Shown: positions 1 through 64,000, counted from the stretch's first letter. The stretch: DNA of 64,000 nucleotides from Deltaproteobacteria bacterium (GCA_038150265.1 JAYOTF010000018.1:2458-66457), one strand, 5' to 3'. Numbers and translations are program-made. Notes: a model not told the origin generated them from the sequence alone.

Positions 1-1370
1 CCCACGTCCAGGGGTTGCTCCCGCTCAGCGCCGGGCTCCTCGTAACGCTCTCCCAACCGAGGCTCCAGCTTCTCCTCGGAGACGTACCAGAACCGAGCGC
101 TGTGCTGCGGATTCGTGTAGTCAATCTCCAGCGCCCACCCGTAGTGCTCGTGCAGCAGGTCCCGAAGGGCTTGCACCGGCATCTTCCCCTGCAGGCAAAA
201 GGCCTGTTCTTCATCTGCGTCCATTTCCTCTCCCCACGGGTCCACGAGGGCGCCATGCGGTTCCAGCAGCAACGCCAGCAGGGCCTCCTGGGCTTCCAGT
301 GGCAGGTGTGCTTCCCCCCAGCGCCACAGGGCATCCCAAGGGTGCGGCACCTGAGGATCCCATGAGTTCCGGACGTAGTGCTCCAGCGCCGTGAGCCCCT
401 CCAGCAGCTCCTGGATCTTGACGGTTTGCAGCGGGTGCTCGCTGTGCCACAGCCTGGCGTTTTCCTGTGCGGCCTCCAGCGCCTGCAGGAAGGCCTCCCG
501 GGTTCCGGGCAACAGGGCTGGCTGCGCCCGGACCTGCGCCAGGGCCGATTCCCGAGCCGCCATCCAGCGGTGGATCAGCACGGGGTGCCGAATCAGAAAC
601 GGCGCCATGCCGAGTCCGGTTGAGTTCCCCACGCCCAGCAGACGCTTCAACTCCGGAGCCAGCCGCGTCGCCCGAGCTCCGCCCCGAGAGGCGGCAAGGT
701 GCTCCACGAGGTCAATCGAGAAGGACCGCGTCAGCCACACCGACAGCAATTCCGCCTGAAACGGCGCCTTCAGCTCCGGACGGTCGGCAAGCAGCCCCCG
801 GTCAGCCGCTCCAAACTTGCCGTTGCCATAAACGGCGGTGGTCCGCATCAGGTAACCCGTCGCTTCCAGCTGCGCTGCGTCCGGTTGCCTTCCCTGTGCC
901 AGCGCCTCCACGACCTGATTGAAGAGCCGGACCGACCGGTTGGCACGGCTGAGGGACAGCTCCCGGGAGCTCACCCGTCCCGCCTCCTGAAGGGGCACCT
1001 GCGTGGAAAGACGCTGCAGGTCTTCCGGAGTGGGGGTGCCATCAAACAGCGTAAAGGTCGCGTCCCAGGCGGTCGCGATGACGCGGTCGGAGCGCTGCTC
1101 ATCCGGAAGGTCATGCGAGAAGACGACCAGGCTGTAGCAGCGTTCCGGACCCGACATGCGGTAAACGGCCTGCCCCACGCCGCGCGCATCCAGGTTCCAG
1201 ACGGGGCGGTCAAACGTCCACTGTTCGGTTTGCAGGCGCCGGAGGAGCTGGCGGAGGAAGGAGAGGCGGGTGGGGTGACTGCTGCCCATGCGGGCCAGAC
1301 GCATGACCGCCCCGGGCGAGCGCCGGAAGGGAGCCGTCGATGACGGGGCAAAGGGGGAGGTCTGGCTCAT
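1..1370 (-). CDS. Conserved hypothetical protein, 3' end runs off the window (not in the ORF track)
   Basis: Hand translation from ATG at 1370: MSQTSPF...MRLARMGSSHPTRLSFLRQLL...RSDRVIATAWDATF...GVGNSTGLGMAPFL...FWYVSEEKLEPRLGER. Segments read at both ends and the middle share one frame. Starts 7 bp after the dipeptidase stop. Resembles uncharacterised proteins I recall next to membrane dipeptidases in marine proteobacteria. Confidence 0.85.
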   Translation of the reverse strand, partial: MSQTSPFAPSSTAPFRRSPGAVMRLARMGSSHPTRLSFLRQLLRRLQTEQWTFDRPVWNLDARGVGQAVYRMSGPERCYSLVVFSHDLPDEQRSDRVIATAWDATFTLFDGTPTPEDLQRLSTQVPLQEAGRVSSRELSLSRANRSVRLFNQVVEALAQGRQPDAAQLEATGYLMRTTAVYGNGKFGAADRGLLADRPELKAPFQAELLSVWLTRSFSIDLVEHLAASRGGARATRLAPELKRLLGVGNSTGLGMAPFLIRHPVLIHRWMAARESALAQVRAQPALLPGTREAFLQALEAAQENARLWHSEHPLQTVKIQELLEGLTALEHYVRNSWDPQVPHPWDALWRWGEAHLPLEAQEALLALLLEPHGALVDPWGEEMDADEEQAFCLQGKMPVQALRDLLHEHYGWALEIDYTNPQHSARFWYVSEEKLEPRLGERYEEPGAEREQPLDV

Positions 1371-1377
1371 GGGATCC

Positions 1378-2385
1378 TCACGACATGAAGGGGGCAGGGC
1401 TGAAGCTGTTGGCAAAAAACCGGGCCCAGTTGTTGCCCAGGATTCCGGCAACCTCGGACTCGGAAAACCCGACCTCTCGGAGGCCGGAAGCCAGGGTGCC
1501 AAACGCTCGGCTGTCTGGGTACCACGCGGGCATTGGAGGAAATCCGGGAGCCGCCGCACTGCCCTCCCCGAAGTCGCGGGACCTGGTCCAGCGCCCGTTG
1601 CGCATCCACTCCACCACCGAGTCGGGCTGATCCTGACAGAGGTCTGAACCAATGCCGAGGTGCGTCACGCCCATGACTTCAGCAGTCCGGGCCACCATTT
1701 CACAAAAGGACGCCAGCGTGCAGGCGCTGCCCTCCTTGAGGTGATGCGGGTAAAGCGAGAAGCCGAGCATGCCTCCGGACGCAGCCAGCGCGCGGAGGAC
1801 GGTTTCCGATTTGTTCCGGAGGGCCGGGTGCCAGCTCGCAGGGTTGGCATGGGTCAGGGCGATTGGACGCGTCGAGTGCTCCATCGCCTCCAGGGTGGAG
1901 CGCTCCGCCGAGTGACTCATGTCAATGACCAGCCCCACGCGGTTCATCTCGCGGATCACCTCCTTTCCCATACGGGTCAGGCCCGGGTCTTCCGCTTCGT
2001 AGCATCCGGTGGCCAGCAGCGACTGGTTGTTGTAGGTCAGCTGCATGAACCGCAGGCCAAGGCGGTGGAGGATCTCCACCAGCCCCAGGTCGTCTTCCAT
2101 GCAGCTCGGATTCTGTGAGCCGAAGAAGATCGCGGTCCGGTTGCTGGCCCGTGCGGTTTCCAGATCAGCGGCCGTGAAGCCCGGGAAGATCAGGTCCGGG
2201 AAGCGCTCAAACCAGCGGTTCCACGCTTCCATCACCGCCACGGTCTCCCGGAAGGTTTCATGGTAGGTGATGGTGACATGGACGCCATCGAGCTGCCCTT
2301 CACGCATCTGGCGGAAGATCGTTTCCGACCAGTTGGCATACTGGAGGGCATCAATGCGGTAGTCTGTGGAGACAGAGGGGGGCAT
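1378..2385 (-). CDS. Membrane dipeptidase family (peptidase M19 / amidohydrolase fold), atypical metal site
   Basis: MQLTYN, VIDMSH, THAN and GIGSD motifs; C-terminal GILGNNWARF. Confidence 0.85.
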   Translation of the reverse strand: MPPSVSTDYRIDALQYANWSETIFRQMREGQLDGVHVTITYHETFRETVAVMEAWNRWFERFPDLIFPGFTAADLETARASNRTAIFFGSQNPSCMEDDLGLVEILHRLGLRFMQLTYNNQSLLATGCYEAEDPGLTRMGKEVIREMNRVGLVIDMSHSAERSTLEAMEHSTRPIALTHANPASWHPALRNKSETVLRALAASGGMLGFSLYPHHLKEGSACTLASFCEMVARTAEVMGVTHLGIGSDLCQDQPDSVVEWMRNGRWTRSRDFGEGSAAAPGFPPMPAWYPDSRAFGTLASGLREVGFSESEVAGILGNNWARFFANSFSPAPFMS

Positions 2386-2565
2386 GACGAAGAAGGGGGT
2401 TTGGCCTCACTGACGGTTGCAGACAAGCCGGGTTCCGGATGAACCCGATTCTGCCACACCTTGGAACAAGCCCCGTGCGCATTACAAGCAAAAACTTCAG
2501 AAAAGGGGACGGAACGTGGCCGTGCAACCGGCTCGCTCTCCCTGAAGGCGCCTCCGGGTGCGGAC

Positions 2566-3588
2566 TCAGGAAGCGGGGAACCAGCCCCGGGTGCGGTTGA
2601 CGAAGGCGACCAGGGACAGCATCACCGGCACCTCCACCAACACGCCGACCACCGTGGCCAACGCGGCGCCGGAATGCAGGCCAAACAGGCTGATGGCGAC
2701 GGCCACCGCCAGCTCAAAAAAGTTCGAGGTTCCAATCAGGCAAGCAGGAGCAGCAATGCGGTGGGGCAGGTTGAGGAGCCTCGCCAGGGCATAGGCCAGG
2801 GCAAAGATGCCATAGGTCTGCAGGAGCAACGGAACCGCAATGAGCCCAATCGTTTCAGGCTGCTCCATCAGGGTTTCCGCCTGAAAGCCAAACAGCAGCA
2901 CCACGGTTCCCAACAGGCCCACCACCGACCAGGGCTTCAGCCACTGCACCCACGCGGCAACCGCCGCCTCGCCCCCTTGGCGCGCCAGGACCTTCCGGGT
3001 GCTGACACCGGCCAGCAGCGGAATGACCACATAGAGCGCCACTGACAGCAGCAGGGTCTCCCACGGCACCGAAATTTCGGTAACGCCCAACAGAAAGGCC
3101 GCAATCGGAGCAAACGCCACCACCATGATCAGGTCATTGACGGACACCTGCACCAGGGTGTAGTTGGGGTCTCCGGACGTCAACTGGCTCCAGACAAACA
3201 CCATCGCGGTGCAGGGCGCCACACCGAGCAGGATCATTCCGGCAATGTATTCCTGAGCACTCACCGGATCCACCCAATCCGCAAACACCCCCTCAAAGAA
3301 CAGGGTCCCCAGTAAGGCCATGCTGAAGGGCTTGACCACCCAATTGATCCCGAGGGTCAGCAGCAGCCCCTTCGGACGCCGCCCCACCTCCCGGACTGCG
3401 GCAAAGTCAATCTGCACCATCATCGGATAAATCATGACCCAGATCAGCCCCGCCACGACCAGGTTGACGTGGGCCACTTCCCAGGTTGCCACCCGGGAAA
3501 ATGCGTCTGGACTCATCCAGCCGGCGCCCACTCCCACCACAATGGCCAGCCCCACCCAGAGGGTCAGGTAACGTTCAAAGCGTCCCAT
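2566..3588 (-). CDS. acr3: ACR3 family arsenite efflux transporter
   Basis: [28 protein letters not shown] and [10 protein letters not shown] motifs; many TM helices. Confidence 0.95.
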
Positions 3589-4060
3589 CTACCTTTCCAA
3601 TCTCTTCCAGTTTGGCCTGCAGGCTCAGGCGTTCCAGCGACGCCAGGGGCAGGTTCAGGAAAATTTCGATTCGCCGCCGCAACTGGCCATACGCCTGTTG
3701 AAAGGCCTGCATGCGCTCCGGAAGTGACCCCTCTGCGGCTGCAGGGTCCGGGATGCCCCAGTGCGCCGTCAGCGGCTGTCCTGGCCACACCGGACACGTC
3801 TCCTGAGCCGCCTGATCGCAGACGGTGAAGACGAAGTCAAAGGCTGGGCCCTCTCGGAAGTCGTCCCAGCTCTTGGATCGCAAATTTTGTGTTTCATGCC
3901 CCAGCGCCTGCAGCAGCTCCAGGGTCAGGGGGTTCACCTTTCCTGCCGGCTGGCTTCCGGCGCTGTAGGCATGAAAACGCCCCGCGCCCGCCTGGTTCAG
4001 GATCACTTCCGCCAAAATGCTGCGGGCCGAGTTGCCCGTACAGAGAAAAAGCACGTTCAT
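3575..4060 (-). CDS. arsC: Arsenate reductase, LMW-PTP (thioredoxin-linked) type
   Basis: [15 protein letters not shown]-loop, VCD...[14 protein letters not shown]; ATG overlaps the arsR stop. Confidence 0.93.
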
Positions 4061-4401
4061 GAAGGCTCTTCTTTCGTTTGAGGAGGAGGGGAAGGCGGAA
4101 AGCCACACAGCTCCGGATTTCCCTGGCAGCAGTCTTCCACCAAATAAGCCAGCAGCTCCTGAATGCCCTGATCCTCGACCGCATACAGGATCTGGCGCTG
4201 CTGACGCGTGGACCGGAGGAGCCCGGCGCGCTCCAGACGAGACAGGTGCGCAGAGAGAGTGGGCGCAGGCACCTGAAGGCGCAGGGCGATCTCTCCCGCC
4301 GGAAGCCCCGAAGGCCCTTCTTGCACCAGCATCCGGAAGACCTCCAGACGCGTCTCCTGGGCCAGCCCCGCCAGTTTGGTGACCGCCTCTTTTATTTCCA
4401 T
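4057..4401 (-). CDS. arsR: ArsR/SmtB family repressor with C-terminal CC-x6-C As(III) site
   Basis: LAQETRLEVFRML, TLSAHLSRL HTH, EDCCQGNPELC; first gene of the ars operon. Confidence 0.92.
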   Translation of the reverse strand: MEIKEAVTKLAGLAQETRLEVFRMLVQEGPSGLPAGEIALRLQVPAPTLSAHLSRLERAGLLRSTRQQRQILYAVEDQGIQELLAYLVEDCCQGNPELCGFPPSPPPQTKEEPS

Positions 4402-5599: not shown

Positions 5600-5676
5600 G
5601 TTTACCGTTGGTGAAAAGGTTCAAAAGCCCATGGGGCTTCAGGAAATCAAGCGCAGGGTCCAGACCAGATGGAGCC

Positions 5677-12614: not shown

Positions 12615-15368
12615 ATGGATTCCTACTCCTTCCTGAGCAACGCCGATCTCGGTGCCTACGACGACCTGTATCAGCAATTTCGGCAAGACCCCAACTCCGT
12701 CTCTCCAGACTGGCGCAAGTTCTTTGAGGGCTTTGAGTTTGCGCGGACGGATTATGACGCCCCTTCCGAGGGCGGTGGTGCCGCTGAGGCGGTGGCTCCG
12801 GAGAAGTTCCAGAAGGAGATCGCCGTCAGCAACCTGATTGGCGCCTACCGGCAGCGCGGACACCTCTTTGCGAAGACCAACCCCGTCCGGGAACGCCGCA
12901 AGCACGAAGCCCCGATTCTGCTGGAAAGCTTTGGGCTGGGAGAGGCAGACCTCGACACCACCTTTCAGGCGGGAGCCCGGATTGGGCTGGGCCCGGCAAC
13001 GCTCCGGGACATTGTGGCGCACCTTGAGCAGACCTACTGCGGCAGCATCGGGGTCGAGTACAAGTTTGTCCGGACTCCGGAAGTGATCGAGTGGCTGGAG
13101 TCACGCATGGAGGCCTGCCGGAACACTCCGGACTTTGGCCCTGAAGACCGCAACCACATCCTCCGCAAGATCCATGAGGCCGTGGCGTTCGAGAACTTCC
13201 TCCACACCAAGTTCGTGGGCCAGAAGCGCTTCTCGCTTGAGGGATGCGAGGCCATCATTCCAGCGCTTGATACCATTGTTGAGCACGGCTCCGAACACGG
13301 CATCAAGGAGTACGTCATTGGCATGGCTCACCGGGGACGCCTGAACGTCCTGGCGAACATCCTGGGAAAAACCTACGACGACATCTTCACCGAGTTTGAA
13401 GGCAAGGCCTTTGGCATTGACGGCTTTGCGGGTGACGTGAAGTACCACATGGGCTTCTCCAGCGACAAGAGCACCCGCAACGGCGAAAACGTCCACCTCA
13501 GCCTCACCCCGAATCCGTCGCACCTTGAGGCCGTGAACCCGGTGGTGGAAGGAATCGTCCGGGCCAAGATCGACCACCGTTACGGCGGAGACGAGAAGCA
13601 GATTGTCCCGATCCTCATCCACGGCGACGCCTCCATTGCCGGACAGGGCATCATTTACGAAGTGCTGCAGATGTCGCAGCTGGCAGGCTACCGCACCGGA
13701 GGGACCGTCCACGTGGTCCTCAACAACCAGGTCGGCTTCACCACCGACTACATCGAGGGGCGCTCCAGCACCTACTGCACCGACATTGCCAAGACCACCC
13801 TCTCTCCGGTCTTCCACGTCAATGCGGATGACATTGAAGCCGTCGTCTACGTGACTCAGCTCGCGCTCGAGTTCCGACAACGCTTCCACCGTGACGTGTT
13901 TGTCGACATCCTCGGGTACCGCAAGCACGGGCACAACGAGTCCGACGAGCCCCGCTTCACGCAACCGACCCTCTACAAACTCATCGGGAAGCACCCGAAT
14001 CCGCTGCAGGTCTACAGCAACAAGCTGGTGGAAACCGGCAAGATGGAAGAGGCAGACATCCGCAAGATGGAGCAGGAGTTCAAGTCCTTCCTGACCGACC
14101 GTTTTGAAGAATCCAAGCAACGAGAATCCGCCAAGGTCATGTCCTTCCTGGAGGGTGAGTGGTCGGGCATTCGGCGGGCCCTGAATGAAGACTTCGACTA
14201 CTCTCCGGAGACGGGAGTCGAGGAGCCCCGCTTCCGGGAACTGGCCCAGCGCATGACCACCCTTCCGGAAGACATGCAGTTCTTCCCGAAGATCCGGAAG
14301 CTCTACGAAGACCGCTGGAAGATGGTTGCCGACACCGACCGGTTGGACTGGGGAATGGCAGAAAACATGGCCTACGCCACCATGCTGGATGAAGGCCGCC
14401 CCGTCCGGATCAGCGGTCAGGACGTGGGACGCGGCACCTTCGCCCATCGACACGCCGTGGTCACCTCTGAAGACGACGTCAAGTACGTTCCACTCAACCA
14501 CCTCAACGATCACCAGGAACGTTTCTCCATCTACAACTCCCTGCTTTCGGAGTACGGCGTGCTGGGATTCGAGTTTGGCTACTCCTACTCCACGCCCACC
14601 GGCCTGGCGATCTGGGAGGCCCAGTTTGGGGACTTCGCCAACGGCGCCCAGATCATCATCGACCAGTTCATCAGCTGCTCGGAAACCAAGTGGCAGCGCA
14701 TGAACGGCCTGGTCATGCTCCTTCCGCACGGATACATGGGGCAGGGTCCGGAGCACTCCTCGGCACGTGTGGAGCGCTACATGGAGCTCTGCGCCGACAA
14801 CAACATGCAGGTGGCCAACTGCACCACGCCCGCGAACCTCTTCCACATCCTCCGGCGCCAGCTCGTCCGAGACTTCCGGAAGCCGCTGGTCATCTTCTCG
14901 CCCAAGGACCTCCTCCGGCATCCGCAGTGCGTCAGCTCGGTGGCCGAGTTCACTGAAGGCACCCGGTTCCGGGAGGTCATTGATGATGCGGGAGTGGAGG
15001 CCTCTCAGGTCCGGCGGGTGCTCTTCTGTACCGGAAAGATCTATTACGAACTGCTGGCCCGCCAACAGGAGCAGCAGCACCTCAACACCGCCATTGTGCG
15101 CCTGGAGCAGCTCTACCCGGTGCCTGAAGTCCAGCTCCGGGAGGTGGTCCGGCGGTACAGCAACGCGGAACAGTGGGTTTGGGTTCAGGAGGAGCCGGAG
15201 AACATGGGGGCCCTGTCCTTCATTGCTCGCCAGTTTGGCAAACGGCAACTCACACCGGCACCTCTGCGCCTGATCGCCCGACGCGAGAGCAGCACGCCTG
15301 CCACCGGATTTGCCAAAATCCACGCCATTGAGCAAAAGGAACTCATCGACAAGGCCTTTGCCGCCTGA
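12615..15368 (+). CDS. sucA: 2-oxoglutarate dehydrogenase E1
   Basis: [48 protein letters not shown]. Confidence 0.98.
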
Positions 15369-31470: not shown

Positions 31471-32631
31471 TCAGGACAGAAGCGTCCGCTCGACCAGCCA
31501 CCAGGCGCCCACGACGGACACGGCAAGCGAGCCCGGAATGATCACCCGTGGACGGTACCAGGCCTTGCCTCGGCCCCAGGCGCCGACCAGCGCAAAGGCC
31601 AGGGCAATGACGGTCAGTTGCCCAAGCTCCACGCCCAGGTTGAAGGCAAGGAGCCCTTCCAGGTAGGCATCGCGAGGGAGCCCGATCTCGAAGAGGACGC
31701 TCGCAAAGCCCAGGCCGTGGAGCAGGCCAAACACGAACACCACCAGCGGCCGCCACTTCTGCAGGTGGTCGGTCAGCAGGTTCTCGACACCAACGTACAC
31801 AATGGATGCGGCAATGAGGGGCTCCACAATGCTGGAAGGCAGCTGCACCAGCCCGTAAATGCTCAGACCCAGTGTAATGGAGTGCGCCACGGTGAAGGCG
31901 GTCACCTGACTCAGCAGGGGCTTCCAGTGGGTGCTGAGCAAAAAGATGCCCACCACAAAGAGGATGTGGTCCAGCCCCTCCGGAAGAATGTGCTCAAACC
32001 CGATCTTGACGTACTCCCAGAAGCGCTCGGCCCGGCTCCGGGGGTCCACGCCTTCCAGCGCCACCCGTTCGCTGGGAGTGCCCTCTTGCAGCCACGCCGA
32101 GTAGCCCTCTCCGGCTCCGGAAACAGGAAGCACCCGGATCACGCTGGACCCGAACGCCGCCTCCCACTGCCACACAAAATCGGTTGCTCCGGAGGGGACG
32201 GTTCCCGTCAGCACCACCTCGGTGATGCGGGCAATGGCGAGGTCTCCCACCTCCGGAATCCGCACCTCGGCGACTTCCGGAGCCCCGGGCGTTTCTCCAA
32301 ATTGCAGCGACACGCCTTCCAGAAAGCGGGGGGTAAAGGCATCAAACTCGCCCCGGAGTGCATCCGGAGGCAGTTCCCGGAGCTGGTTGTACTGGTTCGC
32401 GTTGGGAGAGTCGTCGGTGTCTTCATGACTGGAGCCGATGCCTGAAAGTAGGGCTTCCAGATTGAGGCTGATCGTGATGGAGTATTCTCCTGTGGGCTGC
32501 ACCTGCAGGGTCGCAATGGCCGGGCGGATCTCGTGTCCCCAACTGACCTGACTTCCCAGGAGGAAGAGGACCAGCAGCCAGCCTCCCTTGCCAACACACC
32601 GGCCCCAGGCCGTACGGAAAAGAGTCTTCAT
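31471..32631 (-). CDS. HupE/UreJ family protein with N-terminal periplasmic domain
   Basis: Signal peptide then WGHE; GFEHILPEGLDHILF, FTVAHSITL, FGLLHGLGFA, FNLGVELGQ; start uncertain. Confidence 0.88.
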   Translation of the reverse strand: MKTLFRTAWGRCVGKGGWLLVLFLLGSQVSWGHEIRPAIATLQVQPTGEYSITISLNLEALLSGIGSSHEDTDDSPNANQYNQLRELPPDALRGEFDAFTPRFLEGVSLQFGETPGAPEVAEVRIPEVGDLAIARITEVVLTGTVPSGATDFVWQWEAAFGSSVIRVLPVSGAGEGYSAWLQEGTPSERVALEGVDPRSRAERFWEYVKIGFEHILPEGLDHILFVVGIFLLSTHWKPLLSQVTAFTVAHSITLGLSIYGLVQLPSSIVEPLIAASIVYVGVENLLTDHLQKWRPLVVFVFGLLHGLGFASVLFEIGLPRDAYLEGLLAFNLGVELGQLTVIALAFALVGAWGRGKAWYRPRVIIPGSLAVSVVGAWWLVERTLLS

Positions 32632-35350: not shown

Positions 35351-35426
35351 TGGCTCCCCGAGCCGGACTCGAACCAGCGACCCGGTGATTAACAGTCACC
35401 TGCTCTACCAACTGAGCTATCGGGGA
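35351..35426 (-). tRNA. tRNA-Asn(GTT)
   Basis: TCCCCGATAGCTCAGTTGGTAGAGCAGGTGACTGTTAATCACCGGGTCGCTGGTTCGAGTCCGGCTCGGGGAGCCA: cloverleaf with encoded CCA. Confidence 0.98.
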
Positions 35427-35446: not shown

Positions 35447-35475
35447 AATATATTCGGCTCCGGTTCCGGATGCAA
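35447..35475 (-). promoter_or_regulatory. Sigma70-type promoter of tRNA-Asn
   Basis: TTGCAT-N17-TATATT on the minus strand, about 20 nt upstream of the tRNA. Confidence 0.6.
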
Positions 35476-35696: not shown

Positions 35697-37022
35697 ATGG
35701 CAGACAAGAACCTCACCCGCAGAAATCTGATCAAGGCAGGCTCCGCTGCCACCGTCGCTGCGGGGTTCCCGACCATCCTCACGGCCGCCAGTCATTCCTT
35801 CCGGAACGACCCGGGAAGCAAGCCCAATGTGGTGTTTGGCTTCAACGTTCCCCAGAGTGGCCCTTATGCCGACGAGGGTGCGGATGAGCTGCGCGCCTAC
35901 CAGTTGGCGGTCAAGCACATCAACGGCGAAGGAGACGGTGGTCTGTTGAACACCATGAAGCCGCTCTCCCTGAAGGGGAATGGCGTTCTGGGCAAGAAGG
36001 TCACCTTCGTGACCGGCGACACGCAGACCAAGTCGGATGCGGCTCGCGCGTCGGCACGGAAGATGATCGAGTCCGATGGCGCCATCATGATCACCGGCGG
36101 ATCCTCCTCTGGCGTCGCCGTCGCGGTGCAGGGCCTCTGCAACGAGAACAAGGTGATCTTCATGGCAGGCCTCACGCACTCCAATGACACCACCGGGAAG
36201 GACAAGAAGCGCTACGGCTTCCGGCACTTCTTCAACGCCTACCAGTCGGGGGTGGCGCTGGGTCCGGTGCTGAAGAAGGAGTATGGCACGCAGCGACGGG
36301 CCTACCACCTCACCGCCGACTACACCTGGGGCTGGACCCAGGAAGAGTCCATCAAGAACACCACCGAGGCGCTGGGCTGGGAGACCGTCCAGACCGTCCG
36401 GACTCCGGTGGGGGCAGGGGACTTCTCTCAGTACATCACACCGGTCCTCAACTCCGGAGCGGATGTCCTGATCCTCAACCACTACGGGAAGGACATGGTC
36501 AACTCCCTGAGCCAGGCCATTTCGTTTGGACTCCGGGACAAGCAGGTGAACGGCAAGAACTTTGAAATCATCGTTCCGCTGTTCTCCCGCCTCATGGCTC
36601 AAGGGGCAGGGGCAAACATCAAGGGCATCCTCGGTTCCACCAACTGGAACTGGAAGCTCACCGATGCAGCGTCTCAGGCCTTTGTGAAGTCCTTTGGTCA
36701 AGAGTATGGCTTCCCGCCCTCCATGGCAGCCCACACCTGCTACTGCCAGGCCATCCTCTATGCCAACGCCTGTGAGATGGCGGGCACCTTCAATCCGAAG
36801 GGCGTGATCCCGGCGCTGGAAGACTTCGAGTTTGAAGGCATGGGGAACGGCAAGACCCTCTACCGCGGCTCCGACCACCAGTGCATGAAGAGCGCGTTGG
36901 TGGTGCGTGGAAACATGAACCCCACCAGCCAGTTCGATCTGCTGGAGGTGGTGGAGGTTGTGGATCGGGACACGTTGACCTACGATCCGGCCATCTTCGG
37001 AGGAAACCTCGGCCCCATCTGA
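35697..37022 (+). CDS. Tat-exported branched-chain-type (HAAT) ABC substrate-binding protein
   Basis: LTRRNLIK twin-Arg signal; GFNVPQSGPYADEG, GGSSSGVA, ADYTWG. Confidence 0.92.
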   Translation: MADKNLTRRNLIKAGSAATVAAGFPTILTAASHSFRNDPGSKPNVVFGFNVPQSGPYADEGADELRAYQLAVKHINGEGDGGLLNTMKPLSLKGNGVLGKKVTFVTGDTQTKSDAARASARKMIESDGAIMITGGSSSGVAVAVQGLCNENKVIFMAGLTHSNDTTGKDKKRYGFRHFFNAYQSGVALGPVLKKEYGTQRRAYHLTADYTWGWTQEESIKNTTEALGWETVQTVRTPVGAGDFSQYITPVLNSGADVLILNHYGKDMVNSLSQAISFGLRDKQVNGKNFEIIVPLFSRLMAQGAGANIKGILGSTNWNWKLTDAASQAFVKSFGQEYGFPPSMAAHTCYCQAILYANACEMAGTFNPKGVIPALEDFEFEGMGNGKTLYRGSDHQCMKSALVVRGNMNPTSQFDLLEVVEVVDRDTLTYDPAIFGGNLGPI

Positions 37023-37047
37023 GGCTGACCCTTCCTCTCTAAAGCCC

Positions 37048-37072
37048 AGGCCGCTTCTTCTTGAGGCGGCCT
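37048..37072 (+). other. Stem-loop after the SBP gene (mRNA stabiliser or attenuator)
   Basis: AGGCCGCTTC-TTCTT-GAGGCGGCCT. Confidence 0.5.
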
Positions 37073-37117
37073 CCTTCGGCTGGGCCGATTCCCCCCGACT
37101 CTCTCCCACAAGCTCAC

Positions 37118-38137
37118 ATGGAAGCCATTCTGCTGCAGATCCTCAATGGTCTGGACAAGGGCGGCGCCTACGCACTGATTGCGTTGGGCCTCACGCTCGT
37201 GTTCGGGACCCTTGGGGTGGTCAACTTTGCCCATGGCGCTTTGTTCATGTTGGGAGCCTTCTGTGCCGTCAGTGTCCAGAAGCTGCTCACCCTCTCCATG
37301 AAAATCAAGGACGAAAGCGTCACCTTCTTCGAGGCCTTCAAGGAGGTCCCCTACCTGGAAGTCTGGTTTGGAGAAACCGGGAAGGTCATCATTGACCTCG
37401 CGGTACCCATCTCCCTCCTGGTTTCCATCCCCATCATGCTTCTCATCGGACTCGCCATGGAGCGGGGTCTGGTTCGTTTCTTCTACAAGCGCACGCATGC
37501 TGAGCAGATCCTGGTGACCTTCGGCCTTGCCATTGTGGTGCAGGAAGTCGTCAAGTCGCTCTATGGCGCCAATCCGATTCCCACGCCGGCCCCCGCAGTG
37601 GTGCAGGGCAGCGCCGACGTCGGCGCCTGGATGGGGATTGCGGAAAACGTGGTGGTCTATCCCTGGTGGCGTCTGGTCTACCTGCTCTTTGCGCTCCTGG
37701 TCGTCTGGGCCGTGTTTGCCTTCCTGAATTACACCACCTACGGAATGGTGGTCCGGGCCGGCATGCAGGACCGGGAAACCGTGGGGCTGCTGGGCATCAA
37801 CATTGAGCGACGCTTCACCATTGTCTTTGGGCTGGCTTCGATTGTGGCCGGGCTGGCCGGGGTGATGTATGTGCCCATCCTCCCCCCTGACTACCACATG
37901 GGGATGGACTTCCTGGTCCTCTCCTTCGTGGTCGTCGTGGTTGGAGGCATGGGGTCTCTGGAAGGCGCCGTGGCCGCTGGATTCCTTCTCGGCATCCTCC
38001 AGTCGTTTGCTTCCATGAACGAGATCAAGAGCATCATCCCCGGCATTGACCAGATCATCATCTACCTCGTGGCGGTGATCATTCTCTTGGTTCGTCCTCG
38101 CGGATTGCTGGGACGCAAAGGCGTGATGGAGGGGTAA
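37118..38137 (+). CDS. Branched-chain amino acid-type ABC permease (LivH-like)
   Basis: [13 protein letters not shown]...[20 protein letters not shown]. Confidence 0.92.
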
Positions 38138-38138
38138 G

Positions 38139-39293
38139 ATGAAAAATCAAAGTGAACTCAAACTGATGGCCATCTTTTCGGTGGTCATCCTGACCATGCC
38201 CCTCTGGCTGACGCCCTTTGGCGCCTCCTACCCGGCCCTGCTCCAGAAGTTTGCCATCTACGGCCTCTTTGCCGTGGGCTTCAATCTGCTGTTCGGCCTC
38301 ACGGGTTACCTGTCGTTTGGGCACGCCGCTTTCCTGGGGGTGGGGTCGTATGCGGCCGTCTGGTCCTTCAAGCTGCTCACCATGAACGTCCTCCCGGCCG
38401 TTCTGTTTGCCATGATCCTCTCAGGCGCCTTTGCCGCCCTGATCGGGTACGTCAGCCTGCGTCGAACCGGGATCTACTTCTCGATCCTGACCCTCGCCTT
38501 TGCGCAGATGTCCTACAACCTCGCTTACTCCGTGCTGACGCCCATCACCAACGGAGAAACCGGACTGCAGCTCACCCTGGAGGATCCCCGGATCCTTGAC
38601 GGGGCAACCGAGGTCGCCGGCTTGCCCTCCACCACCCTGTTTGGTGTGGAGATGAACGGCATGGGCGGGTTCTACTTCTGTGCCGTCATGCTGATCATCG
38701 GCTTCTACGTGGCCCTGCGGTTGACGAACTCGCCGTTCGGGCTGGCGCTCAAGGCCATCAAGTCGAACCAGGTCCGCATGAGCTACACCGGGTTCAACAC
38801 CCGGCCGTACATGCTGACGGTTTTTGTGATCTCCGGCATCTATGCGGGACTCGCCGGAAGCCTCCTGGCTGTCACCGACCCCCTCGCCGGGGCCGAGCGC
38901 ATGCAGTGGACCGCCTCGGGAGAAGTCGTGCTGATGACCATCCTCGGTGGCGTGGGCACCCTCTTTGGGCCGCTGCTGGGCGCCGGGTTGATCAAGTACT
39001 TCGAGAACATCTTCTCGGCCATCAACGAAAACGACCTGCTCAACACGTTCGACTTCCTGCCCGACTTCCTCGCCCACCCGATTGCCGGGTTCCTGGGCCT
39101 GTTCATGGGAGAGGGCTGGCACCTGACCCTCGGGGCGCTGTTCATGGCCATCGTCATCTTCCTCCCCGGAGGACTGATGGAGGGCATTGAGAAGCTCTCG
39201 AAACGGATTCGCCGCTCTGCTGTGGGCGACTACCCCTATTCACCGGACCTGATCCGCAAGAAAGCCGAGGAGGAGGCTGCCCGCCATGAGTGA
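38139..39293 (+). CDS. Branched-chain amino acid-type ABC permease (LivM-like)
   Basis: [33 protein letters not shown]. Confidence 0.92.
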
Positions 39294-40056
39294 TTCCAAC
39301 AACTACGTCCTCGACGTCAACGGCGTCAACAAGAGCTTTGGCGGACTCCAGGCCCTCAACAACGTCATCCTCCAGGTCCAGCGGGGCACCACCCACGCCA
39401 TCATTGGCCCAAACGGTGCCGGAAAGTCCACCCTCCTCAACGTCTGCATCGGGCGCATTGTGCCCGATACCGGATACGTCAAGCTGAACGGCGCGACGAT
39501 GACCGGCCTGCAGCCCCATGAGATCAACCAGGCCGGCATGGTCCGGGTCTTCCAGACTCCCGAGATCTTCCCCGACCTCTCGATCCTGCAGAATGTGATG
39601 ATTGCCGCCTTCGCCAAGCGCGACGGGCACTTCACCTTCAACGGCTTCACCCGCCTCCATGAAGAAGCTCAGCTCCAGCAGGAATGTGAGGCCGTGCTGG
39701 AGGACCTGAACCTCGAAAGCCTCATGCACGAGGAAGCCGGAAGCCTCTCCCGAGGAGACAAGCGGCGCATGGAAATCGCCATGTCCCTCATTCAGCGTCC
39801 GGAACTGCTCCTCCTCGATGAGCCCACTGCCGGGATGTCGCGCATGGACACCAACCGGACGGTTGAAACGCTCCAGCGCATCAAGGCCCGAGGCATGACC
39901 AAGGTCATCATTGAACACGACATGCACGTCGTGTTTTCCCTCGCCGACAAGATCACCGTCCTGGCGCAGGGGACTGTTATTGCCGAAGGAACCCCGGACC
40001 AGATCCGCGGGAATCCGAAAGTTCAGGAAGCTTACCTTGGAGGAGAACACGAATGA
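39286..40056 (+). CDS. ABC ATP-binding protein (LivG-like)
   Basis: [27 protein letters not shown]. Confidence 0.93.
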
Positions 40057-57235: not shown

Positions 57236-57253
57236 GGGCGATCCGGATTCCGC

Positions 57254-57282
57254 TTGCAATGCCACGTCCGGAAGGGGATACT
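57254..57282 (+). promoter_or_regulatory. Sigma70-type promoter upstream of ffs-dnaX
   Basis: TTGCAA-N17-GATACT. Confidence 0.5.
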
Positions 57283-57367: not shown

Positions 57368-57460
57368 GGCCGGGAATTGCGCAATTGAAGATTTCGAACC
57401 GTGTCAGGTCCTAGCGGAAGCAGCACTAAGATTTTGGAGATGTGCCGCAAACTCCCGGTC
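57368..57460 (+). ncRNA. ffs: Small bacterial SRP RNA (4.5S)
   Basis: Helix-8 consensus CGTGTCAGGTCC-TAGC-GGAAGCAGCAC; closing helix GGCCGGGAATTGCG / CGCAAACTCCCGGTC; usual position immediately upstream of dnaX. Confidence 0.9.
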
Positions 57461-57477
57461 TCCCGGAAACTCCCCAC

Positions 57478-59415: not shown

Positions 59416-59448
59416 CCCCCCTTTTTTCCTTTGCCTTGAGGAGTTGCC

Positions 59449-59811: not shown

Positions 59812-59819
59812 CGACTCCG

Positions 59820-60623
59820 GTGCGGAAGTGGCGACTGATTGAGGAGGGGCCTCGGTCGGGCTCCTTCAACATGGCAGCGGATCAGGTGCTGCTGGAGGCC
59901 TGTGCTCCAGATGCTCCTCCGACGCTCCGGCTCTATGCCTGGAGCCAGCCCACGCTTTCCATTGGGCGGAATGAGCCCCTTGATGCCCACCTGAACCTGA
60001 CGCGACTGCAACAGCTCGGCATCCCGGTCATCCGTCGGGTGACCGGCGGAAAGGCCGTGTTGCATGGGTTTGACCTGACCTATTCCGTCAGTGGAGCCGT
60101 CTTGCATCCGGAGTTTGCCGGTGGGGTTCTGGACAACTACCGCTTCCTGGCCCAGGGCTTCCTGCGCTTCTTTGCCGCACTTGGGCTGCAGCCGGAGTTG
60201 CAGGGAGAGCGCCTTTCCAAAGACAGCGACGCCCACATCTGCTTCACCGACCCGGCGGCGTATGAAATCCTCGTTGAGGGGCGCAAGCTCATTGGCAACG
60301 CCCAACGCGTCCGCTCCGTCCGGACGGAAGCCGGACCGCAACGCGTCTTCATGCAGCATGGCTCCATCCCCCTGACCGACTCGGTGCCGCTGCTGCACCA
60401 GATCTTTCCCCATGCCTCAGAAACCGAGTTGCGGCAGGAGATGCACTCCCTTGAGTCCTGCGGAGCCCTGGAGCAGCATTCGGAAGCCAGCCTGCGGGCG
60501 CTCTTTCTCGACAGCCTCGCAGAAGCCTTTGAGGTGGAGTGGCACCGCCAGCCCTGGACGGAATCCGAGCACGCCCGGATTCAGGAACAGGAATCCGCCT
60601 TCCCGGTGATTCAGGAGGCATGA
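59820..60623 (+). CDS. Lipoate-protein ligase / LipM-like octanoyltransferase family
   Basis: NMAAD, LRLYAW, RRVTGGKAVLH, ICF, KLIGNAQ, QHGS. Confidence 0.85.
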   Translation: MRKWRLIEEGPRSGSFNMAADQVLLEACAPDAPPTLRLYAWSQPTLSIGRNEPLDAHLNLTRLQQLGIPVIRRVTGGKAVLHGFDLTYSVSGAVLHPEFAGGVLDNYRFLAQGFLRFFAALGLQPELQGERLSKDSDAHICFTDPAAYEILVEGRKLIGNAQRVRSVRTEAGPQRVFMQHGSIPLTDSVPLLHQIFPHASETELRQEMHSLESCGALEQHSEASLRALFLDSLAEAFEVEWHRQPWTESEHARIQEQESAFPVIQEA

Positions 60624-60768
60624 ACTCTGCTTGAGTCATCTCGTTGACAATGAGACGGAAAATCTTGTAGGTTTTCGGACAAATTTGTTAAAAAGGGAAC
60701 CTGTATACGGTTCGCCCTTTCTGACCCTCAACCCGAGGCGTTGCTCGTCTCGGCTTTGGCCACCCAAC

Positions 60769-61290
60769 ATGCCGGAACTCAGCCCGTACACACGGGTGAT
60801 GTGTGATTGTCTCTCCGAAATGGAAGATGATCCGCCCGAGGAGATCGACTCCAAATGTCCCGTCGGGCATTTGCTGACCAACATGCTGCAGGGGCGGATG
60901 CTGGAGCACCTCAAGGCCCGGGTCAGCGAGCACTATGGCATTGCCCCGGAGGACCTCACCGACGAGTTCTCTACCGCCCTCATTGAGGTCTTCAACCAGG
61001 AAATCTTCGGCAGCTTCCGGAAAAAGATTGAGAGCCAGCCCTGGCTGATCTCCTACCTGGCGCGCCGGATTGTTGAGGCCGAGACCGGGAATGAGCCGTA
61101 TGCGGAGCAGCGCATCAACCGCCTCTACCTCTCCATCTTCTGCCGTTACCTGGAGTACCGGAACCTCGAGCAGATCATCGAGACCCTCCAGCGCGACCCC
61201 CGCATCCAGCAAACCATCCTCGAAGCCCAGCAAAAACGGGCAGATCCCGACCCCGGCCGCTCCCTTCCGGCCGCTCCTCGCCTCAGCTAG
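60769..61290 (+). CDS. Hypothetical protein
   Basis: Native-looking codon usage from ATG 60769; CDC and CPVGH motifs; upstream TTGACA-N18-TAGGTT. Confidence 0.65.
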   Translation: MPELSPYTRVMCDCLSEMEDDPPEEIDSKCPVGHLLTNMLQGRMLEHLKARVSEHYGIAPEDLTDEFSTALIEVFNQEIFGSFRKKIESQPWLISYLARRIVEAETGNEPYAEQRINRLYLSIFCRYLEYRNLEQIIETLQRDPRIQQTILEAQQKRADPDPGRSLPAAPRLS

Positions 61291-61298
61291 CCCCTTTA

Positions 61299-61360
61299 TC
61301 ACGTACGGTAATTTTTTCTTGTCATCGGCCGATTGAGTCGTTATTTTTTACCGTACGGTA
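61299..61360 (+). promoter_or_regulatory. hipBA promoter flanked by two palindromic operators
   Basis: TACCGTACGGTA (61349-61360) and degenerate TCACGTACGGTA (61299-61310) around TTGTCA-N17-TATTTT. Confidence 0.7.
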
Positions 61361-61379
61361 TCTTTTTAGAGGCATCGCC

Positions 61380-61664
61380 ATGACCAATGAAGACAACATT
61401 TACGGCGCGGTCCTGACCGTCGAGGAGCTCGGCCGCTTGGTGCGTGCCCATCGCAAGCACCGGCACCTGACCCTGGAAACGGTCTCCGGGCTCGGCAACC
61501 TGAGCACGCGCTTCCTTTCAGAGTTTGAACGCGGCAAGGAGACGGCAGAGGTCGGCAAGGTCCTGAAGGCCCTGCGCACCCTGGGCCTGGAGGTCATCAT
61601 CCAACCGCGTGGGCGGGCAACGCCGGTTCACCGTACCGGCAGGCCCCGTGAGGAAGCCCCATGA
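61380..61664 (+). CDS. hipB: HipB-like XRE/HTH antitoxin
   Basis: ELGRLVRAHRK...TLETVSGL...RFLSEFERGK...KVLKAL; ATGA overlap with hipA. Confidence 0.88.
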   Translation: MTNEDNIYGAVLTVEELGRLVRAHRKHRHLTLETVSGLGNLSTRFLSEFERGKETAEVGKVLKALRTLGLEVIIQPRGRATPVHRTGRPREEAP

Positions 61665-62920
61665 GCGATTCCGACACCCTCAACGTCTGGCACGAACAGC
61701 GCCGGGTCGGTCAGCTCTGGCGCAAGACGACTGGGGCCATCGGATTTCGCTACGATCCCGAGTGGCTCACTGGCGGCTTCGCTGTGTCCCGCTCCCTGCC
61801 GCTGGCGGTCCGGGAATTCGCCCCGGAGGAAGGCACCGCGCAGCTCTGGTTCGCCAATCTTTTGCCTGAGGGGACGGTGCGTGACCACATCGTCCGCGAC
61901 CTCAAACTGCCGGATACGGATTTCGACCTGCTGCGCGCCATCGGCGGCGAGTGTGCCGGCGCGCTGTCAATTCTCCCTGTAGACCGACACCCCTCGGGCC
62001 AGCGGCAGTACCGTCCATTGACGGAGAAGGATCTGGCCGACCTCGCGGCACGCCGGGGACAGGTCTACGCGGTCGGGTCAGTGGAAGAGCGCCCGCGATT
62101 GTCGCTCGCCGGCGCCCAGGACAAGTGCCCGGTACTGATGCGCGACGATCAGGTTTTTCTGCCGCAGGGCGAAGCACCTTCCAGTCACATCCTGAAGTTC
62201 GAGTTGGCCGACTACCGGCACCTGCCCGCCTACGAGACCTTCACCACACAGTTGGCCGCGGCCATCGGCCTGCCGGTGGTCGATATCACTTTGCAGTCCA
62301 TCGGAAAAACTCGGTACGCACAGATTGCGCGCTATGATCGGCTTTCGGATGAACGCGGCGAAGTGCAGCGACTGCACCAGGAGGATTTCTGCCAGGCCTT
62401 GGGTTACGGTCACGAGAAGAAGTATCAGGAACACGGTGGCCCCTCCTTCGCGCAGTGTTACCGTATGGTGCAGGAGACCTCCAGCGAGCCCGCCATTGAT
62501 GTGCAGCGCCTGTTGCGCTGGCAGATTTTCAATGTGCTCGCGGGCAACTCGGACGGTCACGCCAAGAACCTCTCCCTGTTGCATTTGCCGGATGACGCAA
62601 CCCGTCTGGCACCATTCTATGACCTGGTATGCACACGCGCCATCGAACGCATCGACAACCGCCTCGCCTTCGATGTCGGCGGAGAGCGCAACCCCAGTGT
62701 GATCACTTCAGCCCACTGGGAGGCACTTGCCAAGGCGTGCGACGTGCGGCCACAATTTCTCGGCAATCTGGTGCGTGAGACCGCAGATGCGCTACAGGAG
62801 AAGATCGGCCCGGAACGAGAAAAATTCGAGGCCCATTACGGCGCCTATCCGGCATTGCAACGCATCGAGAAGGTCGTCGCCACGCAGTGCCGGCGCCTTG
62901 TGAATCCTCTGAAAAATTAA
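61661..62920 (+). CDS. hipA: HipA family Ser/Thr kinase toxin
   Basis: FANLLPEG, RLSLAGAQDK, HQEDFCQ, GNSDGHAKNLS, LAPFYD. Confidence 0.95.
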   Translation: MSDSDTLNVWHEQRRVGQLWRKTTGAIGFRYDPEWLTGGFAVSRSLPLAVREFAPEEGTAQLWFANLLPEGTVRDHIVRDLKLPDTDFDLLRAIGGECAGALSILPVDRHPSGQRQYRPLTEKDLADLAARRGQVYAVGSVEERPRLSLAGAQDKCPVLMRDDQVFLPQGEAPSSHILKFELADYRHLPAYETFTTQLAAAIGLPVVDITLQSIGKTRYAQIARYDRLSDERGEVQRLHQEDFCQALGYGHEKKYQEHGGPSFAQCYRMVQETSSEPAIDVQRLLRWQIFNVLAGNSDGHAKNLSLLHLPDDATRLAPFYDLVCTRAIERIDNRLAFDVGGERNPSVITSAHWEALAKACDVRPQFLGNLVRETADALQEKIGPEREKFEAHYGAYPALQRIEKVVATQCRRLVNPLKN

Positions 62921-62985
62921 GACACGGATCTTTCAGTTTAATTTTGATTGCCTCGCCAGCAGGACGTTCATGGTTGAGTTGAGTT

Positions 62986-63735
62986 TCATGGTGAAGACTC
63001 CAGTTGAAGCTCATGAAGGTGGGTCAGGGTGGCACCGAGGTGTCCGGTGACCGCTACGGCGATGCTTGCTCCCAGAAGCAGAAGCAGCCCCAGGGCGGTC
63101 CACCACGGACGAGCCGGCGTCGGCCCCTGGACCTGACGAATCAGCAGCACCAGGGAAGCTCCCACTGCCAGCCCGGTTGTGGTGTAGGCCGAGAGGTCGT
63201 GGGCTTCCAGAACCGCAAAGGCCTGCGGAGACAGCGACGCCACATGCGGATGAAATCCGAAGCTGGCTCCGAGTGCGCCAACCGTTCCTCCGAGCGTCGC
63301 CAACGTGGTGGCCCACTGTGGAGGCTCCGAACGCCTCCGCAACTCCAACAGGAGCAAAAGGAAGGCAAAGGGCAGCAGCACCACAGGAACATGAACCACC
63401 AACGGGTGCAGCGTCGGAAAGTCTTCCAGCGAGGCCCAAACAGCGCTGCTCGGTGCTTCGGGCGCGTCTTCCAGTTCAGAACTCTTCGGAGCCTGAAGAA
63501 CTGGGGCCACTTTCGGAACCGCTTCTACGGGAGGCAGGGTTTCAGCCTCTGGGGCTGGCTCTTCTTCCTCCACCGGAACCACTGGAGCCTGCTCTGGTTC
63601 AAGCTGCTGTGAGAGCGCTTCTGCTGGGGCCTCCGGAACCTCCGGAACGATTTTGGGCTCGTGTTTCTCATCTCCGTGTCCCCAGACACTTAAGCCCCAG
63701 AGCAGGAGCCCTCCAAGGAGTAACGTTCGCTTCAT
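62986..63735 (-). CDS. DUF2231-like membrane protein with His-tipped Pro/Glu-rich N-terminal extension
   Basis: Signal peptide MKRTLLL..., HGDEKHE; LHPLVVHVPV, EAH and GHLGATL motifs; GGAGG RBS. Confidence 0.75.
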   Translation of the reverse strand: MKRTLLLGGLLLWGLSVWGHGDEKHEPKIVPEVPEAPAEALSQQLEPEQAPVVPVEEEEPAPEAETLPPVEAVPKVAPVLQAPKSSELEDAPEAPSSAVWASLEDFPTLHPLVVHVPVVLLPFAFLLLLLELRRRSEPPQWATTLATLGGTVGALGASFGFHPHVASLSPQAFAVLEAHDLSAYTTTGLAVGASLVLLIRQVQGPTPARPWWTALGLLLLLGASIAVAVTGHLGATLTHLHELQLESSP

Positions 63736-64000
63736 GACCCCTCCAAGGGGCCACTCCCGAATGGTTGCTGGCCAGAGTGACTTGACGTCAGTGCGGCCTT
63801 GCCCCAACTGTGTGGAGGTTGAAGGTTGAGCGAGAGCTTCCAGCGGAACGGAGGGGCTCAGTTGAAGGTACATCCGCCCATCGACCACCGGAAGCAACAG
63901 GGGGCCTGCAGCCCACGGCGATCGCCGCGGCTGGCGATTTTGTTTGTGAGACATGATCCAAGAGGAGGACTGAGTTGAAAAAGGTGCAGGACGTGCTGCA

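Follow-up and report, generated by a model that had tools for sequence, protein, structure and literature searches.

The closest described counterpart of the element treated here is HIP1 (GCGATCGC), the highly iterated palindrome of cyanobacteria. The present analysis concerns the hexamer TCCGGA in a stretch of 64,000 bases from an uncultured marine Deltaproteobacteria bacterium (GCA_038150265.1, JAYOTF010000018.1:2458-66457; "the window" refers to this whole stretch) and in the draft genome to which the window belongs. Like HIP1, TCCGGA is a single short palindrome that recurs in coding and non-coding DNA beyond what codon use explains, is better conserved than control words, and has been lost patchily among relatives (PMC5861425, PMC4390886; here and below, statements on cited papers refer to the available parts of those papers). 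TCCGGA differs in being 6 bp rather than 8 bp long, in being a word other than GCGATCGC, and in belonging to another phylum, outside the cyanobacterial lineage. HIP1 enrichment is 15- to 300-fold (PMC5861425), compared with 8.7-fold for TCCGGA, and HIP1 has a co-occurring methyltransferase (Elhai, PMC4390886), whereas none could be assigned to TCCGGA in the draft genomes. Periods of 18-94 kb are given for HIP1, and "helical" as a word is absent from the available parts of PMC5861425; TCCGGA has a period of 10.5 bp, together with a preference for one face of the helix that depends on the clade (the face rule). Selection on HIP1 has been reported by Xu et al. 2018 (PMC5861425); according to the same paper, two decades of research have left unsettled whether a function exists.

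Other short words with a genome-wide role can be set beside TCCGGA. DNA uptake sequences are oriented words of 9-12 bases, often arranged as inverted pairs in terminators and accompanied by competence machinery, whereas TCCGGA is a 6-bp palindrome with weak flanks (T at -1). SeqA binds pairs of GATC sites cooperatively and prefers those on the same helix face, and to our knowledge GATC is not strongly over-represented in E. coli. The Dam/SeqA/GATC system of E. coli resembles the present one in that a short palindrome is read genome-wide by a protein (PMC2691817), but the window's genome has neither a SeqA match nor an assignable methyltransferase, and some TCCGGA clades prefer opposite faces. 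The rCCGGy word of Oscillatoria PCC 10802 is likewise a six-base palindrome centred on CCGG whose abundance in a single lineage is extreme (Elhai 2015, PMC4390886); it has degenerate R/Y flanks in place of T/A, and ACCGGT and GCCGGC stand at 0.66-0.68 times expectation in the window's genome. It was linked to a methyltransferase by Elhai, and no helical phasing is reported in the available parts of that paper (PMC4390886). The nucleases BsaWI (W/CCGGW) and Kpn2I act as symmetric oligomers that read TCCGGA or a superset of it, and some such enzymes need 2-3 copies (PMC4652773, PMC6344858), but these are restriction systems, whose hosts normally avoid the site. Restriction-site avoidance concerns the same kind of word with the opposite sign to that seen in the window's genome and its enriched relatives. 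A nucleosome-like code does not fit this genome, which lacks a match to the histone fold (PF00808) and shows no dinucleotide phasing to TCCGGA.

Literature searches, which did not extend to subscription journals, brought up no paper on bacterial TCCGGA over-representation, on helically phased iterated palindromes, or on SAR324 in connection with palindromes. TCCGGA is most likely an equivalent of HIP1 outside the cyanobacteria, set apart by a new property, helical phasing. The label "HIP-like", given to the word when the window was read from its sequence alone (the sequence-only reading), is a fair one, since one palindrome stands far above other hexamers, is found in every codon phase as well as outside genes, and is patchy in its lineage.

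Enrichment of a single word

The draft genome that contains the window (G000, in which the window is G000:C18:2458-66457) comprises 3,393,712 bases in 87 contigs, is 97.8% complete, and has a guanine plus cytosine (GC) content of 61.2%. Its contigs are short relative to periods of tens of kb such as those of HIP1. It holds 9,711 copies of TCCGGA, or 2.86 per kb, and the observed number divided by that expected (O/E) on base composition, 8.7, is the highest among all hexamers. Under a first-order model the O/E is 7.6, third behind a rare word pair with 629 copies, and under a second-order model it is 3.95. The excess is specific to the word: the other fifteen NCCGGN words stand at 0.66-2.26 times expectation (e.g., CCCGGA 2.26, ACCGGA 1.62), and among hexamers of the same composition (n = 180) the next best is CTGCAG at 3.15. 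Equal enrichment in either set, which the sequence-only reading had named as grounds for abandoning its proposal, is thus not seen, and a general CCGG or composition effect is ruled out. A longer true motif was also rejected, because flank preferences are weak (T at -1 is favoured 1.5-1.7 times) and because TTCCGGAA, with an O/E of 27 on composition, reaches only 1.14 given its 7-mers, which identifies the hexamer as the unit. None of the nine classes of one-substitution neighbours is depleted in G000 (e.g., TCTGGA/TCCAGA 2.57 and TTCGGA/TCCGAA 1.34 times expectation). In sequence samples from five genomes with 42.9-61.2% GC, among them the relatives G002, G001, G013, and G018 (the last with just 42.9% GC), TCCGGA ranks first among hexamers (O/E 7.3-9.4), and its enrichment is independent of base composition.

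Coding constraint does not account for the excess. With a gene set obtained by iterative codon-usage scoring (2,689 genes, 86.7% of G000), 8,624 sites are coding and fall in all three phases (2,019, 2,376, and 4,229 in phases 0, 1, and 2), while 20 within-gene synonymous shuffles give a mean of 2,079 (standard deviation 34, maximum 2,160). The resulting O/E of 4.15 (3.9, 3.3, and 5.1 by phase) contrasts with the value near 1 after codon shuffling that had been put forward as a refutation. The first shuffles used an earlier gene set of longest open reading frames (ORFs), at least one of which was called on the wrong strand; these gave an O/E of 3.9 for synonymous and 6.7 for codon-order shuffling, with TCCGGA as the top hexamer in the synonymous test. 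The word fills 8,624 of the 20,939 positions at which the protein permits it (41%), and Ser-Gly is written TCC-GGA in 33.7% of cases, where codon usage predicts 8.1%. The 458,951 bases not assigned to genes, among which small genes may have been overlooked, hold 1,089 sites, or 2.37 per kb, with an O/E of 7.6, so that the recurrence across codon phases and intergenic DNA noticed at the outset extends to the whole genome. The synonymous and codon-order shuffles and the non-genic counts rule out a codon or dipeptide artefact; the pressure acts on DNA, not on protein, and is specific to TCCGGA.

Comparison with the relative G002 (450 kb aligned to G000 at 82% identity) reveals both conservation and turnover. 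The two genomes have 609 sites in common, which is 45.7% of the 1,334 aligned sites in G000 and 57.8% of the 1,053 in G002, compared with a median sharing of 31.7% among hexamers. Where the amino acid is the same, a codon is retained more often if it lies within the word than if it lies elsewhere (TCC.678 versus.629, GGA.611 versus.482, CGG.712 versus.580, CCG.652 versus.524). TCCGGA sites are thus better conserved than control words, and the effect is modest. Occupancy of permissive positions is 1,181/2,769 (42.7%) in G000 and 932/2,704 (34.5%) in G002; the higher density in G000 results from occupancy and not from more permissive proteins, and amino-acid divergence is alike at occupied (204/1,181) and unoccupied permissive (304/1,588) positions. 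The suggestion that the word biases the proteome is therefore not borne out, as the difference between the genomes is one of synonymous occupancy at nearly equal numbers of permissive positions. Single-base differences from G002 lie mostly at the outer T/A position (105 and 68 single-difference sites). The sites are not positionally fixed, and the difference in occupancy between close relatives indicates that the pressure is still acting.

Helical phasing and the face rule

Neighbouring copies of TCCGGA are helically phased, with a period of ~10.5 bp and a short-range exclusion zone, which is a new finding. After removal of the 3-bp codon signal, the spacing spectrum of G000 peaks at 10.5 bp with a power of 48, compared with at most 8.9 in 100 jittered nulls, and the best period over 20-1000 bp is 10.46 bp. 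The amplitude declines from.24 (20-124 bp) through.13 and ~.075 to ~0 beyond ~550 bp. Spacing peaks occur near 31, 41-42, 51-52, 63, 72, 84, 93, 105, and 114 bp, whereas spacings of 11-17 bp hold only 3-12 pairs each and a spacing of 9 bp holds 45, against ~28 expected per distance. Pairs at 9 and 10 bp are enriched both in G000 (45 and 22), where whole turns are favoured, and in G013 (12 and 10), where half turns are favoured, and spacings of 11-17 bp are depleted in both; judging from the sequence, two copies 9 bp apart (e.g., 63632-63646 of the window) could form a 6-bp stem with a 3-base loop.

The phasing belongs to the occupied sites rather than to the proteins that permit them. In G000 the occupied sites have a power of 39.4, whereas the permissive positions reach 0.14 and 200 random assignments of occupancy do not exceed 7.5; out-of-register pairs match in-register ones in periodicity (amplitudes.119 and.144). 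An imprint of amphipathic helices is ruled out by the aperiodic permissive positions together with the periodic out-of-register pairs. Among 470 hexamer classes with at least 2,500 copies, TCCGGA alone is phased; the next value, 9.1, is that of CCGGAG, which overlaps TCCGGA, and the median is 2.5. Repeat-like pairs with similar flanks number 26 of 8,273 and their removal leaves the phasing unchanged, which excludes tandem or dispersed repeats as its source, and odd and even contigs have the same phase (-0.46 and -0.50). There is no phasing of A/T, AA/TT, GC, CG, GG/CC, or TA to TCCGGA in G000 (relative amplitudes at 10.5 bp below 1%). A/T content and AA/TT have a periodicity of their own, 11.3-11.4 bp, apart from that of TCCGGA, and a general curvature signal of the genome is ruled out by this difference in period and by the lack of cross-phasing. 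No flank feature was seen to divide the phase classes.

The abundance of the word varies widely among relatives. In a survey of 72 genomes of the phylum (at least 80% complete), with the reversed word AGGCCT as control, the ratio of TCCGGA to control is 4.8-32 in genus g11 (12 of 12 genomes), 14-30 in g12, 3.9-5.9 in the window's genus g1, 3-8.4 in g4, and 4.5-4.7 in g6. Genus g2, of the same family as g1, is neutral in six of six genomes (0.84-1.2 times control), and family f2 ranges from 0.13 to 2.0. In family f7, genera g30-g32 are moderately enriched (2.5-8.2 times control), and the word is nearly gone from g33 and g35-g38 (15-267 sites versus 1,435-1,882 for the control). Across the phylum the range runs from ~2.9 per kb down to 15-76 sites per 3.1-3.4 Mb.

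The low extreme is made up of f7 genomes (G065 and G067-G071, with 15-267 copies per 2.7-3.7 Mb) and of f2 genomes (G023, G021, and G026, with 133, 40, and 37 copies, each with 21-26 PF01555 matches), in all of which AGGCCT is common. Near-elimination in these sister lineages probably reflects restriction avoidance. The 1.6-Mb genome G053 (family f4) has 357 copies of TCCGGA and 10 of AGGCCT and may represent an independent enrichment.

The face that is favoured depends on the clade. Counting pairs at 41-43 bp (four turns) against pairs at 46-48 bp (four and a half turns) in each genome, whole turns are favoured in G000 (129/52), in G002 (67/39), in g4 (sum 57/22), and in 12 of 12 genomes of g11 (sum 465/155). 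Half turns are favoured in three of three genomes of g12 (7/47, 10/68, and 0/33; sum 17/148) and in G001 (22/57). Binomial p values for the face rule range from 0.008 to 7e-37 and make the evidence look stronger than it is, as related genomes are not independent. Spacing spectra agree with these counts: the period is 10.4-10.5 bp with an amplitude of.35-.50 and a phase of ~0 in G018 (400 kb), and 10.5-10.6 bp with an amplitude of.40 and a phase of ~pi in G013 (1.12 Mb, 2,604 sites; power 27-28 versus at most 8 in the null). In G013 the phasing is present in both codon-register classes, and occupied sites have a power of 23, compared with at most 6.9 for random occupancy. G001 (797 kb) shows a weaker anti-phase signal (power 9.3, null maximum 7.6), and G002 (469 kb) is weakly in phase (power 6-8). 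The face rule is thus clade-specific, including a split inside one genus, and a same-face preference such as that of SeqA is present in G000, G002, g11, and g4 and reversed in g12 and G001.

The window and candidate genes

The window contains 190 TCCGGA sites, or 2.97 per kb, spread across genes and spacers. In 100 dinucleotide-preserving shuffles the mean was 27.0 (standard deviation 5.05, largest 41) and none reached 190, which confirms the over-abundance first noticed there. The counts behind that observation were largely accurate: all eight positions listed for the first 2,000 bases (368, 652, 775, 1024, 1102, 1144, 1774, and 1815) are exact, the ORF at 12615-15368 holds ten sites where about ten had been counted (the ORF was called sucA in the sequence-only reading), and the composition expectation of 0.3-0.4 per kb compares with a computed value of ~0.33. 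The GC content, estimated at ~64%, is 62.2%. The near-tandem copies, the inverted repeat behind the hairpin proposed near 2433, and the copies near tRNA-Asn and ffs, the small signal recognition particle (SRP) RNA, were all found again, the last on the basis of position only. The following features are given in window coordinates, with strand where one applies.

13069..13081: TCCGGA-C-TCCGGA, two copies 7 bp apart (13069 and 13076), inside the ORF at 12615-15368
63632..63646: two TCCGGA copies 9 bp apart, at 63632 and 63641
2429-2434 with 2442-2447: inverted repeat with a 6-bp stem and a 7-base loop, in the spacer between two ORFs, overlapping the site at 2434-2439; stems read by eye directly from the unfolded sequence
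35465..35470: single copy 39 bp upstream of the minus-strand tRNA-Asn at 35351-35426; position only
57242..57272: two copies, one at 57242 (126 bp upstream of the plus-strand gene for the small SRP RNA, 57368-57463) and one at 57267 (101 bp upstream); position only
1102..1149: whole-turn pair, given as an example, with its copies 42 bp or four helical turns apart
1774/1815 and 7560/7602: further whole-turn pairs, 41 and 42 bp apart
31979..32368: six sites within 390 bp, the highest density in the window, spaced 137, 72, 64, 24, and 87 bp apart
36459..39797: largest site-free gap of the window, 3,345 bp between sites, the third largest in the genome

A gap of this length is not exceptional, since the largest in G000 is 3,611 bp and ~3,144 bp is expected for random placement. 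Clusters are also close to or below Poisson expectation in G000 (at least five sites per 300 bp, 105 versus 112; at least six, 10 versus 18.6). Other words are unusual in the same genome, namely TACTAC/GTAGTA (629 copies, 9.6 times the first-order expectation), CTACTA/TAGTAG (1.8 under the maximal-order model), and CATTGA/TCAATG (2.4-2.5 times the synonymous-shuffle expectation).

Profile searches of G000 gave no match to PF00145, PF03852, or PF02384, and the first two were also without a match in the enriched genomes G001, G013, G015, and G018. SeqA (PF03925) had no match in G000 at E-values up to 0.1, whereas the E. coli control matched. Nucleases of the Bse634I/NgoMIV type (PF07832, PF09015) were not found in G000 either, but the control genomes were equally silent, which makes this search uninformative. 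MutS is present. Two methyltransferase-like genes, each with an S-P-P-Y motif, were found outside the window.

G000:C45:2844-3620: MT1, 258 amino acids, PF01555 at 81 bits; close homologue only in G001
G000:C51:248-1387: MT2, weak PF01555 matches, cut by the contig end

MT1 lies in an island (G000:C45:39-4562) in which a 936-residue ORF with a retron-type reverse transcriptase domain (NF038233 at 200 bits, below the cut-off of 235, and PF00078) is immediately followed by MT1 and then by a 311-residue protein without a family match; from this gene content the island looks defence-type. As an island seen only in G000 and G001, it does not make MT1 a plausible driver of the enrichment. Among solved proteins, MT2 comes closest to DNA cytosine-N4 methyltransferases, a likeness confined to short motifs (E 1.7e-5). 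The protein is conserved order-wide (loci L026:451-2643 in G002 and G000:C51:2-1387); a long N-terminal repeat region rich in Arg, Glu, Asp, and Pro precedes its permuted methyltransferase domain (motif I before S-P-P-Y), and the full G002 copy has 730 residues. In five of the ten g11 genomes with MT2 (G034, G035, G038, G040, and G042) and in the g4 genome G048, the match contains one in-frame stop (TGA or TAA), which may stem from gene disruption, recoding, or faulty sequencing. Matches to MT2 were present in 43 of the 72 genomes (28/35 in family f1, 14/15 in f2, and 0/21 in f3-f7). It occurs in five of six neutral g2 genomes and in the depleted G023, G019, G028, and G027, and was not found in the enriched f7 genera g30-g32 (0/9) or in g7/g10 (0/3). 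Its presence thus does not track enrichment, and MT2 was rejected as the driver. Repair of the Dcm/Vsr type was rejected as well, as neither a C5 methyltransferase nor Vsr was found in G000 and the neighbour words are not depleted.

Explanations for the iterated word

The explanation favoured here, to which we assign a probability of about 40%, is that TCCGGA is the recognition word of an abundant architectural DNA-binding protein with two-fold symmetry. A mutation or repair bias would hardly produce helical phasing, whereas a symmetric protein in contact with two or more copies would do so readily, and this suggests a reader. We infer that a multivalent protein reads the word and that the word is maintained by selection, not by mutation. 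For proteins that recognise such a word and hold several copies of it there is a precedent (PMC4652773). The reader, presumably a lineage-specific, "chromatin-like" architectural protein, would sit on the palindrome as a dimer and would contact or bridge neighbouring bound copies up to ~0.5 kb away. Any single site would matter very little; selection would be weak and genome-wide, effective in very large marine populations, and would drive synonymous and non-coding positions toward the word and toward spacings on the favoured face. If contacts between its subunits changed, the reader could come to favour half turns in one clade where whole turns are favoured in another. A DNA-binding chromosome organiser had been among the proposals of the sequence-only reading, and helical phasing lends it indirect support.

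Several observations weigh against such a reader. The main gap is that no reader protein for TCCGGA was identified in this analysis. Apart from the phasing, spacing in G000 is Poisson-like (coefficient of variation 0.98) and its evenness unremarkable (rank 76 of 127 abundant hexamer classes, with a variance/mean of 1.15); operator-like arrays, motif-free islands, and unusually even spacing were sought in G000 and none was found. On a maximal-order Markov model the O/E is just 1.22, a value that arises because the word's own 5-mers, TCCGG and CCGGA, are the top 5-mers and carry the signal. Turnover is high, with 725 of 1,334 aligned G000 sites gone in G002, and in sharing between the two genomes TCCGGA ranks merely 210 of 1,387 classes. 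Retention in G002 is 118/288 for sites with only a whole-turn neighbour, 70/161 for those with only a half-turn neighbour, and 330/677 for those with none; in-phase sites are not better conserved in this comparison, and selection on pairs is thus not visible at this sample size. Pairs confined to non-genic DNA number just 712; their amplitude (.166) is the same, but the power is only 4.9. Counts in g6, g3, g10, and f7 (g32) are too small or mixed to classify the phasing. Within the window alone, pairs at 20-130 bp divide into 22 in phase, 22 in anti-phase, and 22 intermediate, because 64 kb is too small for what is a genome-scale statistic.

In a methylation-linked ratchet of the kind proposed for HIP1, TCCGGA or CCGG would be marked by an orphan methyltransferase, and near-matches would be turned into the word by very-short-patch repair or methyl-directed mismatch repair; this explanation appears unlikely. 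It would explain the enrichment in all phases and in non-genic DNA, the high turnover, and the absence of fixed positions. The two S-P-P-Y genes of G000, the cytosine-N4 relatives of MT2 at the motif level, and the presence of MutS would supply parts of the machinery, and the differences from G002 lie mostly at the outer T/A, as Elhai's model predicts for outer positions (PMC4390886). The rCCGGy word likewise offers a precedent for an alternative iterated palindrome in one cyanobacterium (PMC4390886). Helical phasing would have to come from cooperative enzyme action or from a reader of the methyl mark, and the ratchet itself predicts neither the phasing nor the flip of the face rule. The lack of PF00145, PF03852, and PF02384 in G000, and of the first two in several enriched relatives (all incomplete drafts), also speaks against it, as do the restriction of MT1 to G000 and G001 and the occurrence of MT2 in neutral and depleted genomes but not in several enriched ones. 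No one-substitution neighbour is depleted, and TCTGGA/TCCAGA is even raised to 2.57. The cognate methyltransferase with biased repair that had been suggested for this word therefore finds no support in the gene content of these draft genomes, in which neither MT1 nor MT2 follows the trait.

It is improbable, though conceivable, that TCCGGA marks self DNA, with a relative of the CCGG-family restriction enzymes, an uptake system, or a defence component needing at least two copies in a set geometry and the host being enriched for the site. When such enzymes bridge two copies through a short loop, helical phase should matter. Working as dimers or tetramers, the enzymes of this family engage one to three targets, and the site of BsaWI is W/CCGGW (PMC4652773). 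The range from iterated to eliminated within one phylum also suggests that word-specific systems circulate. Known restriction systems, however, deplete rather than enrich the site in their host, and the uptake sequences known to us are longer and not palindromic.

Intrinsic DNA mechanics is about equally improbable. TCCGGA would then be bent or easily bent, and selection on curvature or supercoiling would set density and phasing with no need of a dedicated reader, whole turns giving curved DNA and half turns a straight zig-zag. The period of ~10.46-10.5 bp does equal the repeat of relaxed B-DNA, the signal decays over a few hundred bp, and both the whole-turn and the half-turn regimes exist. 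Mechanics alone gives no reason for one exact hexamer to be preferred over CCCGGA (2.26) or ACCGGA (1.62), and it leaves unexplained the neutral sister genera and the sharp flip within one genus; in addition, A/T and dinucleotides are not phased to the word (below 1%) and the A/T period of the genome is 11.3-11.4 bp.

A neutral mutation bias that depends on context, or a side effect of codon, dicodon, or amino-acid usage, is very improbable (its codon version is already largely refuted), for although the maximal-order O/E is 1.22 and the excess of the codon-order O/E (6.7) over the synonymous one (3.9) indicates that amino-acid order contributes ~1.7-fold, a ~4-fold enrichment remains after synonymous shuffling in every phase, non-genic DNA is equally strong, the effect holds from 43 to 61% GC, phasing is absent from permissive positions and present in out-of-register pairs, and a mutation bias would need a context of five to six bases and would not phase the copies.

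If TCCGGA is indeed read by a symmetric architectural protein, a broader idea, which we hold more tentatively, is that iterated palindromes are a "chromatin code" written in the sequence, in which a clade-specific protein occupies thousands of TCCGGA copies and ties neighbours together on a fixed helix face, with genomes co-evolving with the geometry of that protein and a change in its assembly having flipped the code from whole to half turns between sister clades. Helical phasing may then have gone unnoticed as a general feature of HIP-type words, HIP1 among them, and would point to their function. The approach used here (comparison of occupied with permissive positions, combined with the spacing spectrum) can be applied directly to HIP1 and to other iterated palindromes. 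TCCGGA provides a second, independent system of the HIP type in another phylum and makes the question of function testable. The 10.5-bp phasing is a physical signature that argues for something touching two copies at once; the word's range from about one per 350 bp to about one per 200 kb within the phylum offers many contrasts of gain and loss, and the whole-turn and half-turn clades, including one split genus, constitute a natural switch for finding the responsible gene.

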